Source: Octopus vulgaris
Lineage: Eukaryota
DNA: 64,000 nt
Reading direction: 5' to 3'
Assembly: GCA_951406725.2 (NCBI GenBank)
Contig: OX597821.1
Coordinates: forward strand, 15,934,001-15,998,000
Position numbers and translations under genes: made by a program. The notes beneath the pieces are model-generated. The model was not told the DNA's origin. It saw nothing but the letters and a program-made list of their open reading frames with translations, and ran no database searches. Below, piece by piece: positions 10,481 through 36,135 of this stretch; the first letter of the stretch is position 1; each line of letters opens with the position of its first letter.

Positions 10481-10889
10481 GTAGATTTCCCAGAAAATTA
10501 GTACTCGAAATTTAATACGAATACAGAGGTTCATGCTTTGTTATTTAAGAAACGAAGGATACAATCGTTTCAATCTACAATGTTGTGCTCAATTCAGAAA
10601 CACCAATGATTGGCCGAAAAGGTCCATTACAATGCCATTATGTAATGTACAAGCACTCCCACGCTTGTACATAGATATTATACATACGCACAAACGTATG
10701 GATAAATGAGTTGATATATACGTGCATGCTTTTATATATATGTATAAATATATATATATATATATATATATATATATATATATATATATATATATATGTA
10801 TATCTATATATATATGTATATCTATATATGTATATATATGTATATATATATATATATATATATATATATATGTATATATATATATATAT

Positions 10890-11316
10890 GTGGGTGTGTA
10901 GGTTCTACCTGAGATGTACCTGCTGGCATGGAGAGGAAGGTGCAGGCTGCCGTTTTGCACATCGGGGAACCTGCCGCAGAGACACGAAACAGATCAGAAA
11001 CAAACTAACAAAAGGAAAAGCGATGGACCACGCACCACCTGCCCCAAAACGGAGGTACGCAGATGTGGTGCGTGCCACAAACGGCCAACATGATGTTGTT
11101 GAAAGGGCAGCAGCTGAAAAAGAATCTTTTTTGTGCATGGCACAAAAGATTATACAGCAGCTAACCTGGTTTCATCAAACCCAAGCTCGCAGATGGGACT
11201 ACCCACAATATACAAGACCACCACAGCAAACAGATCAAGGTGGACACCGCCGGCAACAGCATACACCTCACCTCGATGCTCCTACTGAACATCAGAGGAC
11301 TGCAAACACTCAGTAA
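10890..11316 (+). pseudogene. LINE A ORF1 C-terminal remnant with CCCH zinc finger
   Basis: [22 protein letters not shown]...YADVVR...[13 protein letters not shown], homologous to LINE B ORF1. Confidence 0.8.
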
Positions 11317-14235
11317 CAGGACAAAAATCCCGTTCTTGAGAGACTTTGTTGCATGCAATCAAGCCTTATGCATAGCACTTACGGAAACGCACCTGAAACC
11401 GGACATAGCAGATGCGGAATTACACATACCACAGTATGTTGTACTACGGACCGACAGAAAAGAATGGAGTCATGGAGGAGTCGCTATGTACATCCGTGAG
11501 GACCTCACACCCCACGTCCTTTTGTCATACTCAAACTCGGTGTGCTACACACTAATTGTGCATATAAGGCAACTTGATGTAGTTGTGTGTGCTACATATC
11601 GCCCTCCAGATGCCCCAAGCCATGTAGGCAAGTTTGAAGACTGCCTTATAAAAATAGAATAAGTTCTAATCACATTAGAACAACACATAAGTGTACTTCT
11701 TATGGGAGACTTCAATCTACCCAATGTCAGATGGTCCGTGTGCCTTTCTCTCCCAGGAATGACAAGATGTGAACGAGGACAGGCGAGGTCCCTCCTGAAC
11801 CTCATCAACACCCTGTACATGGAGCAAGTAATACTCCAACCAACCAGGGCAGGTAACACACTGGATCTCTGCTTCACAAATAATATGGATCTCATCCATA
11901 ATGTGAAAGTGACACCGACACTACTCTAAGATCACAACATGGTAGAGCTGACCATGTACGGGCCAAAGGATAGCATGGACATGCAGCCTACAGGAAACCC
12001 TCAGAATCTTTCCAGCTTGAACTTCCATAAGGCAAACTGGAAACAAATTGAAAAGAGATCCTCAAACAAAACTGGCCTGAATGTCTCTCCTCGCCGGACA
12101 TCGACGTGAAACTTCAACAATTCATGTCTGTAATGCAAGCCATATGCTACAAATGTGTCCCAGAGAGAAAGGCCACTGTACACAAGAACAAAATCCCCAG
12201 AGAGAGGGAAATTTTAATGAGACGACGTACAAAAATTTCAAATCGCCTAAACAAACAAATTGAAAGCAGTGAAAAGTCCCGCCTGAAAATAAAACTGTTG
12301 GACATTGAAAAATGTCTGCAACTCTACCATGAAAAGGAGAGAGCAGACAAAGAAGCCTGGGCTATAGACAACATAAAATCTAACCCCAGAGCTTTCTACA
12401 GGTATGCCAAAGAAACAGCTACGGTGCACTGTAGGATAGGGCCACTCCTTGAAAAGGATGGCACACTCACAGGAAAACCAATGAAGGTAAGTGAAATACT
12501 GAATGAGCAATTCAAGAGTGTTTTCACTCCACCCCTTGGGCATTTGCAAATCACCAATCCAACTGACTTCTTTACCACTGCAGATATAAAATCAGAGGCG
12601 GCGACGATAAATTACATCGATATAAAGGAAGACGATGTAATAAAGGCTATAGATGAAATGAAAACAGACTCAGCTACTGGCCCCGATGGATTCCCGGCAA
12701 TCCTCCTAAAAGTATGTAAGAGAATCCTAGCAAGACCACTGCAGTTCCTCTTTCAGAGCTTCCTTGCAGCTGGCAAACTTCCAAGAAAACTGAAGGAAGG
12801 TAAAATATGCCCTATTCATAAAGGAGGTAGCAGAGCGGAGGCCAAGAACTACAGACCTATCTCTCTGACCTCACACATCAGCAAGGTCATGGAACGAATA
12901 GTCAGAAGAAAACTGATCACCTTCCTTGAAGAAAATGACTTGCTGCCTGACACTCAACATGGTTTCCGATCAGGAAGAAGCTCCTTAACTCAGCTCCTAC
13001 AACACTATGACTGGGTGCTGAAACGACTGCTCAACCACTCAAATGCGGAAGTCATATATCTCGACTTTGCAAAGGCCTTTGATAAAGTCGATCATGGAAT
13101 GATATGTCACAAACTGCGTGATCTCAGCATAGTTGGAAAACTGGGAGAATAGCTACATGACTTTCTGAAAGATAGAAGTCAGGTGGTAGCAGCCAATGGG
13201 GCCACTTGCATTAGCACGCAAATAGTGAGCGGTGTTCCACAGGGCACTGTTTTGGGACCACTTCTGTTCATAATGGCCCTCTCAGACATGCCCTCAGCCA
13301 CGCGGAGAGCCACGATCACAAGTTATGCAGATGATACAAAAGTTTCACAGGCAATACAGAACCCTGAAGACACTAGGCACCTGCAATATGAGCTGGACGA
13401 AATATACAAGTGGCCTGAAAAGAATAGCATGCAGTTCAATGCTGAAAAGTTTCAAGCTTTATACTATCAGCATGCAAAACTGAATGCAATACCCAATGAA
13501 TACACTGGACCCGGAGGGATTGCAATCCCAGAGGCACAATCAGTGCGTGACCTGGGTATTCACATGAGTGATGACGCGACCTTTCATGTACATGCTGCTA
13601 AACTGACAATGAAATGTAGACGGCTGGCTGGATGGATTCTTAGAACCTTTAGAACAAGAGAACAAGAAACCATGATGGTCCTCTGGAAGACACTTGTCCT
13701 AAGCCACTTTGATTATTGCTCTCAGCTATGGTCACCATCCAGTGTCAAGTTGATCACAGAACTTGAGGCGATCCAACGAAGCTACACGAAGAAGATAGCC
13801 TCTGTGCAGCATACGAGCTACTGGGAAAGACTCAAGAGATTAAAGCTCTATTCCCTGGAGCGTAGGCGAGAAAGATATGCCATAATATATATCTGGAAGA
13901 TCCTGGAAGGTCTTGTCCCAGACTTTGGCATCGAGAGTCACACAAACGCCAGAACCGGACGCCACTGCCTAGTACCAAGGACTCCAAATTTGCCATCAAG
14001 ATGTAGGACAAGATATTGTGATAGCCTGGGCTTCAGAGGCCCACGGCTCTTCAATATCCTCCCGAAGAACCTGAGGGACCTGCATGGTGTAGATGCGGAT
14101 GTCTTTAAAGTAGGACTGGATCTCTTCCTGTCAGGTGTCCCAAATGAACCAACATCACGGCAGGAGGTGCAGATGAGGGCAGCTGCATCGAACTCTCTCA
14201 TGCATCAGATGGCGTTTGCTAAAAAGCATCCGTGA
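11240..14235 (+). pseudogene. LINE A ORF2 (AP endonuclease + reverse transcriptase), interrupted by stops and frameshifts
   Basis: LLNIRGL, ALTETHL, GDFN, TLDLCF; NYRPISLTS, QHGFR, YLDFAKAFDKV, GVPQGTVLGP, SYADD; ORF pieces 11240-11662, 11702-11929, 12106-13152, 13183-14235. Confidence 0.95.
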
Positions 14236-14326
14236 GGTAAACCCGTGTAGCAAACCAAATGGCGGTGCCCCAGCATGGCCACAGCTCATTAGCTGAAACT
14301 GGAAAAATCAAAATCAAATCAAAATA

Positions 14327-35200: not shown

Positions 35201-35354
35201 ACCAAAACACATTAAAACAGAAACTGACCCTATAGGGTTCAAGAAGTCTTTGGACAGATTCCTTCAAGAAATCCCGGATAAACCCCCTACACCCGGATAT
35301 GTCTCTGTAAACAATAACTCTCTACTTGAGTGGGCCATAGTGCCCAAATTCTGA
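32115..35354 (+). CDS. LINE C ORF2: AP endonuclease + reverse transcriptase (true start uncertain)
   Basis: 1079-aa open frame; LLNAQG, LTETHL, GDFN, ILDLVF, SDHD; NYRPISLTS, QHGFR, YLDFSKAFDRV, GVPQGTVLGP, IFADD, LYSLQRRRERY. Confidence 0.97.
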   Translation: MLVQSFQEDTKTTTTKVETTTLSNSATTPPAKNCSLSRKILFSHVEHGKRDTQKHSSHHSTPSYAITPVHQFPTLLPLTHTKNPSPLQQSKPATTLTSTFLLNAQGVSPSINAQKWKVQFIEDWVGNHSHHIPFFILTETHLDNSHLEAEVRVKNFTTIRADRIGRRKGGTAIFLHDSFTADGNSIFSNGYCESVTVHNKANDLTVIGLYRPPQTPILCFKECLNSIKCFIQQCHSSNILMMGDFNLPCVDWTTNCLKPSTPASTADKEAAESLFDFTNEFFLSQLVLAPTRHQNILDLVFSNHTNTIHNVTVEKTLLSDHDMVLCNMKFHQPKANPSDLPPAHPFDNMDLHKANWDAIRNELSNVDWSFTHTHISTNHKTSWQIFVDTVTDICAKHSPPRPVNKKCRIPQNRKTIIRKIKRTNKKINKLKYCQQQHTHSTAIALLESKKYNLQQCMKSLINNQRSAEEKWAIEKIKLNPKVFFSFARKRRVTVSTVGPLIDETGTLQDNAKSMAEILQKQYCSVFSNPDMADLGCISDVNPQHTISDITFSAPDVLAAINEIKHNSAVGPDRFPACVLKVCRHQLASPLANLWRNSLDAGYIPKNLLSQSVVPVFKKGNKSLAVNYRPISLTSHIIKVFERVVRSQITQFLESNRRLISNQHGFRNGRDCLTQLLHHFEDILRALGEGSNTDVIYLDFSKAFDRVDHKILLKKLSNIGVSGKLLKWIKCFLTDRSQHVVVEGVKSSPAKVSSGVPQGTVLGPLLFIIYINDINDIIKHSNIKIFADDSKLQKVINEASDRTCLQSDLLAVIQWAEKNNMLLNEDKFELIHFGKEDALKLPYSLPSGETLAASNNIRDLGVIVDNNVSWATHINTKVDMARRMCSWILRTFQSRDIHTIILLFSTFARPHLEYCCPLWSPHTIQGIKKVEAPQRAITKKIDGMTGLDYWGRLEKLKLYSLQRRRERYIICMMWKIFHQHCPNDVGITFKVHPRLGPRAIRPKQKSHSHLITTIRHNYFTSIGPALFNITPKHIKTETDPIGFKKSLDRFLQEIPDKPPTPGYVSVNNNSLLEWAIVPKF

Positions 35355-35446
35355 CTTGAAAGACTTCACCAGGTGGTGCTATTAAGTTAGACATGGCCTG
35401 GGCCAATAATGGCCGAAACCTATCAAAGTATCAAAGTATCAAAGTA

Positions 35447-36135
35447 TATATATATACACATATATATATATATACATATATATATATATATATATATATA
35501 CACATATATATATATATATATATATATATCATATATATATATACACATATATATATATACATATATATACATATATATACATATATATAGATACATATAT
35601 ATATATATATACATATATATAGATACATATATATATATATATACATATATATAGATACATATATATATATATATATACATATATATAGATACATATATAT
35701 ATATATATACATATATATAGATACATATATATATATATATATACATATATATAGATACATATATATATATATATACATATATATAGATACATATATATAT
35801 ATATATACATATATATAGATACATATATATATATATATATATATATATATACATATATATAGATACATATATATATATATATCATATATATATATATATA
35901 TGTATACACATATATATATATACATATATATATATATACATATATATAGATACATATATATATATATACATATATATAGATACATATATATATATATATA
36001 TACATATATATAGATACATATATATAGATACATATATATAGATACATATATATAGATACATATATATAGATACATATATATATATATATATATATATATA
36101 CACATATACATATATATATATATACAAATATATAT
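35447..36135. repeat. Impure (TA)n tract with TAGATACA variant unit, 3' of LINE C
   Basis: Direct reading. Confidence 0.95.

Follow-up and report, generated by a model that had tools for sequence, protein, structure and literature searches.

Interrupted (TA)n arrays at the ends of APE-type LINEs in a 64-kb window of the Octopus vulgaris genome

The window analyzed here is a stretch of 64,000 nucleotides from Octopus vulgaris (contig OX597821.1, positions 15,934,001 to 15,998,000) containing three long interspersed nuclear elements (LINEs), termed A, B and C, in the neighborhood of long arrays of the dinucleotide TA. The locus raises the question of whether such elements enter (TA)n arrays by preference or come to lie beside them by other means. 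The initial annotation of the window had noticed TA tracts directly at both junctions of A and C, including the point at which A is 5'-truncated; for each of the four junctions visible in these two elements, a TA tract of at least 20 nt lies no more than 6 nt away. Its proposal that the elements insert specifically into TA repeats is a reasonable hypothesis rather than a result, and the observation behind it holds for two of the three elements. Feature coordinates, counted from the first letter of the window, are collected in Table 1; published sources are cited by PMC number.

Junctions of the LINEs with TA arrays

The strongest evidence comes from element C, where a run-length reading of the flanking arrays identified a candidate 47-bp target-site duplication ending the 5' array and beginning the 3' array. 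The CACA interruption within it occurs once in the 5' array, and its exact 42-mer has no occurrence in the window other than those at 30750 and 35445. The second-longest prefix match in the 5' array covers 14 nt. When repeat units were shuffled, a match of 42 nt was reached in 118 of 10,000 cases for the 5' array only and in 6 of 10,000 for both arrays. A second duplication score was reached in 207 of 5000 and 15 of 5000 shuffles, respectively, and among 440 ordered array pairings only by the C pair and its mirror. The flanks of C are a well supported candidate for a target-site duplication, with C inserted into a pre-existing interrupted array; the three interruption bases of the duplicated segment imply that the array was already interrupted, and at least ~45 bp long, before C inserted. 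Target-site duplications of CR1/L2 elements peak at 3-5 bp (PMC4245944), and a length of 47 bp against that peak points to an unusual cutting geometry.

Element A is an older, decayed copy with internal stops and frameshifts in its coding part. Its truncation point adjoins one TA array directly, and its (AAAATC/AAATC)n tail is followed by another, so that a short target-site duplication would be invisible inside TA. The tails of the LINEs differ as initially described, that of C being (TATCAAAG)x3, and the tail of a short interspersed nuclear element (SINE) discussed below is (AAAGAGT)-like. With tail units of these kinds in A, C and the SINE, the arrays are not tail expansions, which bears out the earlier statement that the TA is not tail-derived, though the C unit begins with TAT and thereby has microhomology to a TA target. 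GTGG directly after TAT starts both A (10890-10893) and C (30797-30800), one element being truncated in open reading frame 1 (ORF1) and the other full-length; this common start is possibly chance.

For element B, which had also been described as lying beside TA, the 1.5-kb array does reach the assembly gap, but the 3' junction of B is hidden and its estimated 5' end adjoins a mixed TG/TA tract, the nearest TA tract of at least 20 nt being 176 nt away. If B is complete, ~804 nt of ORF2 and ~90 nt of the 3' untranslated region (UTR) are missing at the gap, and because the 3' end lies inside the 100 N the element is not scorable for a TA junction. Between the tract at the 5' end of B and the array at the gap, the longest common string has 12 nt; it was rejected as evidence of a duplication. 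At 29473-29869 the 5' UTR of B contains GA/CT-rich tandem duplications of 144 bp (99%) and 51 bp.

These junctions have to be read against a window with 33% GC, many TA microsatellites and two 100-N gaps. TA tracts of at least 20 nt make up 12.8% of the non-element background, or 3.3% when the element-adjacent arrays are left out, and 20% of the background is within 50 nt of a TA tract. All arrays of at least 300 nt in the window adjoin an element end or the gap beside B. The chance of two out of two insertions at TA is 0.016 on the higher background and 0.001 on the lower, values that are uncorrected and come from a window picked for the pattern. If the target were defined more broadly, as alternating purine-pyrimidine tracts of any kind, it would take in 5 of 5 visible LINE ends, 2 of 5 SINE 3' ends and the long terminal repeat (LTR) fragment described next, on a background of 14%; this definition is post hoc and was not counted.

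The LTR fragment serves as a control. Within the region 6488-10490 it comprises a 1.18-kb LTR with 8-bp inverted termini, a motif resembling a primer-binding site (PBS) from 9227 and a degenerate internal part with a 135-bp duplication, and it has neither a second LTR nor a Pfam match; its LTR and PBS features are those of what we take to be a Gypsy element. It adjoins the longest TA array, and TA association is not confined to LINEs; arrays acting as general hotspots would be expected to show this. In the five long arrays (6488-8048, 14328-14887, 24636-26164, 30191-30796 and 35445-36136) C-type interruptions predominate on the + strand whatever the orientation of the element, and several have higher-order periods. 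A strand-biased expansion of these arrays is possible.

Table 1. Positions of the elements, arrays and other features in the window
Feature	Position	Strand	Description
LINE A	10890-14327	+	5'-truncated within ORF1 CCCH finger; APE and RT; two 3' UTR hairpins at 14261-14295
Interrupted (TA)n array, 5' side of A	10733-10889	.	Interruptions 2 C, 6 G (G-type)
Interrupted (TA)n array, 3' side of A	14328-14887	.	Mostly C-type interruptions
Interrupted (TA)n array beside B	24636-26164	.	1.5 kb, up to assembly gap
100-N gap	26165-26264	.	Conceals 3' junction of B and, assuming a complete element, its last ~0.9 kb
LINE B	26265-30020	-	CT-rich 5' UTR, ORF1, APE, RT cut by gap; 5' boundary (~30020) set by eye
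Mixed TG/TA alternating purine-pyrimidine tract	30021-30095	.	At estimated 5' end of B
Interrupted (TA)n array, 5' side of C	30191-30796	.	
Candidate duplication, left copy	30750-30796	+	(TA)6 CACA (TA)7 CA (TA)5 CATAT
LINE C	30797-35444	+	Apparently full-length; both ORFs open
C ORF1	31121-32242	+	N-terminal Myb/SANT-like three-helix domain (predicted), Q/S/P-rich linker, two CCCH fingers
C ORF2 frame	32079-35354	+	APE endonuclease and RT
C 3' UTR	35370-35444	+	Two hairpins at 35370-35414, then (TATCAAAG)3 tail
Candidate duplication, right copy	35445-35491	+	46/47 identical, first 42 exact
Interrupted (TA)n array, 3' side of C	35445-36136	.	Higher-order units of ~32 bp
Gypsy-like LTR fragment (control)	8049-9224	+	Directly after 1.56-kb TA array 6488-8048
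SINE, near-complete copy	57502-57908	+	Shares LINE 3' hairpins
SINE copies	4469-4881, 40932-41250, 43867-44132, 54855-55152, 57502-57908, 60993-61191, 23362-23517		
SINE 3' ends elsewhere	~4881, ~43867, ~54855, ~61191		
Second SINE-like family	427-510, 38950-39102, 48368-48521, 59564-59689		

Element architecture, lineages and the partner SINE

The ORF2 frame of C encodes an apurinic/apyrimidinic endonuclease-like domain (APE; PF14529/PF03372) N-terminal to the reverse transcriptase (RT; PF00078), and no other domain in ORF2 is above the Pfam cut-off; neither RNase H nor a C-terminal zinc knuckle is seen by eye in the translation. The APE catalytic motifs N, TET, YRPP, GDFN, LD and SDH are present in B and C, and in A a stop falls in the last of them. 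The predicted structure of C ORF2, with a predicted local distance difference test score (pLDDT) of 86, has human L1 ORF2p as its best structural matches (E 2.6e-32).

The N terminus of ORF1 is predicted to form a Myb/SANT-like domain (PF13837) in C, with E 1.9e-5 and 25.4 bits under a cut-off of 27 bits, and in B, with E 0.01 and likewise under the cut-off. The ORF1 of B starts at ATG 29314 and is frameshifted, the domain being followed by CCCH fingers as in C. The atlas neighbors of the C domain are mostly Myb/SANT, every score being below 0.9; its model is helical (pLDDT 82.6), and a fold search with the model gave Z scores of at most 6 and matches including homeodomains and ARR1-DBD, with no clear family. 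The Myb-like domain is seen only in B, C and three further proteins, and as a predicted feature of the ORF1 N terminus it is a lead, short of proof.

The CCCH fingers (E 0.002-0.006 in C) occur in ORF1 of all three elements, the truncation of A removing the region of the Myb/SANT-like domain. Among marine metagenome relatives, ORF1 of L001 combines a PHD domain (E 8.9e-7) with CCCH, and that of L002 has a similar cysteine spacing by eye, without a Pfam match. No Myb match was found in ORF1 of these two readable relatives, which have PHD or PHD-like and CCCH regions. On the basis of these sequences CCCH is a lineage-wide feature of ORF1. The microsatellite-targeting elements of the R1 and Tx1 clades have an ORF1 with gag-type CCHC knuckles; none was found in ORF1 here, where the fingers are of the CCCH type only.

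A and B are 70% identical in nucleotide sequence, whereas C shares 38-40% identity with them in RT protein. Among named sequences, those nearest to the A RT come from Argonauta hians (59%) and Octopus sinensis (63-64%); no relatives were found in viral contigs. In a midpoint-rooted FastTree phylogeny of the RT core, built from the 110 of 316 sequences passing a length filter (all such loci and selected proteins), Argonauta P0122 falls with A and B, and Argonauta P0230 with C (0.98), on separate branches of one clade (1.00). A/B and C are two octopod lineages rather than one family, and the initial description of three family members is a loose one.

All three elements have the build of APE-type non-LTR retrotransposons of the CR1 group (CR1/L2 lineages), to which belong the 3' stem-loops and short-repeat tail that A and C have in common with the SINE and an ORF2 free of RNase H and zinc knuckle. 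The label is one that we presume from RT motifs and anatomy, the tree being composed of unnamed relatives and a few named proteins. With its Myb/SANT-like and CCCH regions, ORF1 is outside the described types (PHD, RRM, CCHC, esterase and Tnp22). ORF1 is variable in the CR1 group (PMC4120745), so an atypical ORF1 leaves membership possible; no occurrence of CCCH, SANT or Myb was found in the available part of that ORF1 survey, and the arrangement in B and C would be an architecture absent from it.

Four of the 24 runs listed were aligned to C. In contig runs X2 and X12 the depth over C is high and rises toward the 3' end, the core pieces of C in X12 reaching a depth (which is not copy number) of 6300-7400 compared with 17-64 for divergent pieces. 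The raw runs, X23 with 122 reads on C and X24 with 93, match mostly at CAA repeats and are uninformative. C is multicopy and 3'-biased in the contig sets. At 35407, 52-59 contigs diverge from C with another second hairpin and a TATCTAAG-like tail, which suggests a sister family of C with a tail that also contains TAT.

A 24-nt 3' motif is common to A and five SINE copies, with none expected (it never appeared in shuffles); a search of viral contigs and of prokaryote genome contigs did not recover it. The same two 3' hairpins are predicted in the folds of A, C and the SINE; 90% of the cells in the alignment are paired and two-sided changes occur in 3 of 12 pairs, for a structure set after the folds had been viewed. 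The SINE and the LINEs are likely to form a SINE-LINE pair, and the SINE, which carries an internal TA/TG microsatellite, likely also seeds TA tracts. TA is present at one of five visible SINE 3' ends (61192), compared with two of two for the LINEs (Fisher P=0.14), a comparison in which the partner LINE family is uncertain. In the second SINE-like family none of the four copies is at TA and all are at least 600 nt away, a weak 32-nt match 25 nt from a tract having been excluded. AAAGT is found in the tails of the marine relatives L001 (5830-5916) and L002 (5600-5620), as in C and the SINE.

Two further repeats are present in the window. An AT-rich foldback element of ~1.15 kb at 51794-52954 has inverted arms of ~390 bp (74% identity) with (TAA)n/(TAT)n at both ends and may be a TAA-associated DNA transposon or miniature inverted-repeat transposable element (MITE). 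At 18970-19775, inverted arms of 77 bp (88%) lie ~800 bp apart in a MITE-like arrangement. An Rfam search of the window gave no match.

Proposed route of insertion and alternatives

These junctions are tentatively explained by a loose, structure-driven bias of A, B and C toward long (TA)n arrays, in preference to strict targeting of the sequence. C encodes an intact APE and RT, and its RNA has the two hairpins and the short repeat tail at the 3' end. Entry into an existing interrupted TA array with duplication of ~47 bp is well supported for C and would be assumed for A. Long TA arrays may melt or extrude hairpins and thus offer many equivalent nick sites to APE or to structure-selective nucleases of the host; AT/TA repeats do form hairpins and cruciforms, which are cut in yeast by nucleases of the latter kind (PMC12972899). 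Two strand cuts placed several repeat units apart could then give a duplication far above the clade norm, and recognition of TA structure would fit the atypically long duplication of C. The tail, through TAT of TATCAAAG in C and AT/TA in A, may anneal to the freed TA end and prime reverse transcription. The split arrays would subsequently expand by slippage into higher-order patterns, so that in an older copy like A the duplication would be erased.

Several observations weigh against this route. The scorable insertions number two, in a window selected for its TA pattern, and the SINE frequency of one in five is indistinguishable from background. A search for a duplication between the 5' and 3' arrays of A detected none, and these two arrays differ in the type of their interruptions. 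One position of the duplication at C, near the junction, is mismatched, and in low-complexity DNA of this sort a duplication could be mimicked by slippage or by conversion from one flank to the other. The flanks of the C junctions are not visible among the alignment rows listed.

A somewhat unlikely alternative is passive co-accumulation, in which insertion is unbiased, a repeat-rich and gene-poor sink retains long insertions together with TA arrays, and short TA runs expand later. It would make the region ordinary repeat-rich octopus DNA, and it draws on the TA content of the background, the LTR fragment and single SINE end that also adjoin TA, and the SINE microsatellite from which such tracts could be seeded. 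Passive accumulation, in CA repeats, has been cited for Drosophila Waldo-A/B (PMC3812793), and hotspots of transposable elements exist in Octopus vulgaris (PMC13282606). Against it, the interrupted array at C is older than the insertion, the junctions are at 0-6 nt from TA and not just in its vicinity, and the same TA pattern recurs in two lineages.

Strict targeting, with the APE or the ORF1 Myb/SANT-like domain recognizing (TA)n and nearly all copies located there as for Waldo, Mino and Kibi, is unlikely. Both scorable insertions are in TA, B is compatible in having a TA array across its gap and a purine-pyrimidine tract at its 5' end, and the Myb/SANT-like domain is common to B and C and unmatched in the two readable marine relatives. 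Weaker points in its favor are that in two contig sets 30 and 34 records extend beyond the stretch carrying a 15-16 nt TA flank, and that no pile of loose ends occurs at the tail end among the matches listed (24 rows; 1310 others). However, the SINE that uses these 3' hairpins meets TA in one of five cases, though its partner may be a sister family, and the visible 3' ends of metagenome relatives meet unique DNA (L002), a 16-bp minisatellite into which the tail continues (L001) or (TACA)n (L005, outside the tree). No TA junction was seen among 80 metagenomic loci, a weak negative given that most contigs have no visible junction; (TA)5 or longer occurs in 5 of the 80, and the two long TA runs, those of L054 and L074, are upstream of the match by more than 500 nt and belong to elements that fall outside the A/B/C clade. 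Targeting shared by A/B and C as separate lineages would have to be old or to have evolved twice, the APE alignment has no feature marking specificity, and a fixed cutting geometry would not predict a 47-bp duplication.

The Myb route to targeting put forward in the initial annotation finds no support, the domain being in ORF1 rather than ORF2 and its region absent from the truncated A; its presence in B and C leaves room for a targeting role without showing one. Insertion into an existing array is supported for C, but the targeting proposed there is not established with two insertions, an LTR fragment at an array and one SINE end in five. A more far-reaching scenario, that octopod CR1-group LINEs exchanged the PHD of ORF1 for a Myb/SANT-like domain, target (TA)n family-wide with variable long staggers and help to build the very long TA arrays of octopus genomes, is unlikely. 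Misassembly, with long TA arrays mis-expanded or mis-joined beside multicopy elements as the gap exactly between the TA array and B might suggest, is very improbable given the distinct ordered interruption patterns of the arrays, the intact ORFs of C and the sharp junctions.

A TA-directed CR1-group element would mean that targeting arose independently once more and that APE elements have a further target; were the targeting family-wide, TA-targeting APE retrotransposons would exist beyond the R1 and Tx1 clades. Even the looser form connects LINE insertion with TA arrays that are fragile and prone to hairpins, and with the growth of those arrays. C is intact and multicopy and is directly assayable.

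Comparison with known systems

Waldo, Mino, Kibi and Koshi belong to the R1 and Tx1 clades. They are APE-type elements with a microsatellite on both sides of the insertion, as are A and C, and their targets are ACAY, AC, TC and TTC, respectively (PMC3812793). None of them targets TA, and their specificity has been shown family-wide, in contrast to the two insertions scored here. The LINE microsatellite targets given in that source are ACAY, AC, TC, TTC and TAA, with a DNA element the only one listed for TA. Target-specific families reported so far mostly either carry a restriction-like endonuclease (RLE) or belong to Tx1 or R1, the two targeting clades among APE elements (PMC4640811). The precedents invoked in the initial annotation come from clades other than the CR1 group. 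PMC13282606 labels Dong, one of them, as Dong-R4 and PMC4640811 treats R4 as an RLE clade, whereas PMC3812793 places Dong among the APE elements.

No TA-targeting CR1-group LINE and no Myb/CCCH ORF1 of a LINE was found in the literature searched, the search lying outside Repbase, subscription journals and the Zenodo library of PMC13282606. The available parts of PMC5786205, PMC3747384, PMC10294476, PMC9115989 and PMC13708176 contain little on targeting. Octopus vulgaris has 169 CR1 families, 13 of them recently active (PMC13282606); A, B and C may be among those catalogued, and the consensus library may contain them. No statement on the target sites of CR1 families was found in the available part of that source.

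The plant DNA transposons Micron and MuTAnT share the TA microsatellite target (PMC3812793, PMC4486113) but move by a transposase and are not target-primed retroelements. The Tn-TA signature of the RTE clade (Bov-B and Sauria SINE) is similar in its loose TA-linked nick preference and in the influence of the tail microsatellite on priming (PMC13295347), and differs in belonging to another clade and in involving single TA steps downstream of a T-stretch rather than long arrays. The closest likeness is to CR1-group LINEs themselves, with which A, B and C have in common two ORFs, APE and RT without RNase H, 3' hairpins and a short-repeat tail shared with a SINE, and 5' truncation, and from which they differ in the Myb/SANT-like and CCCH regions of ORF1 and in the length of the candidate duplication of C.

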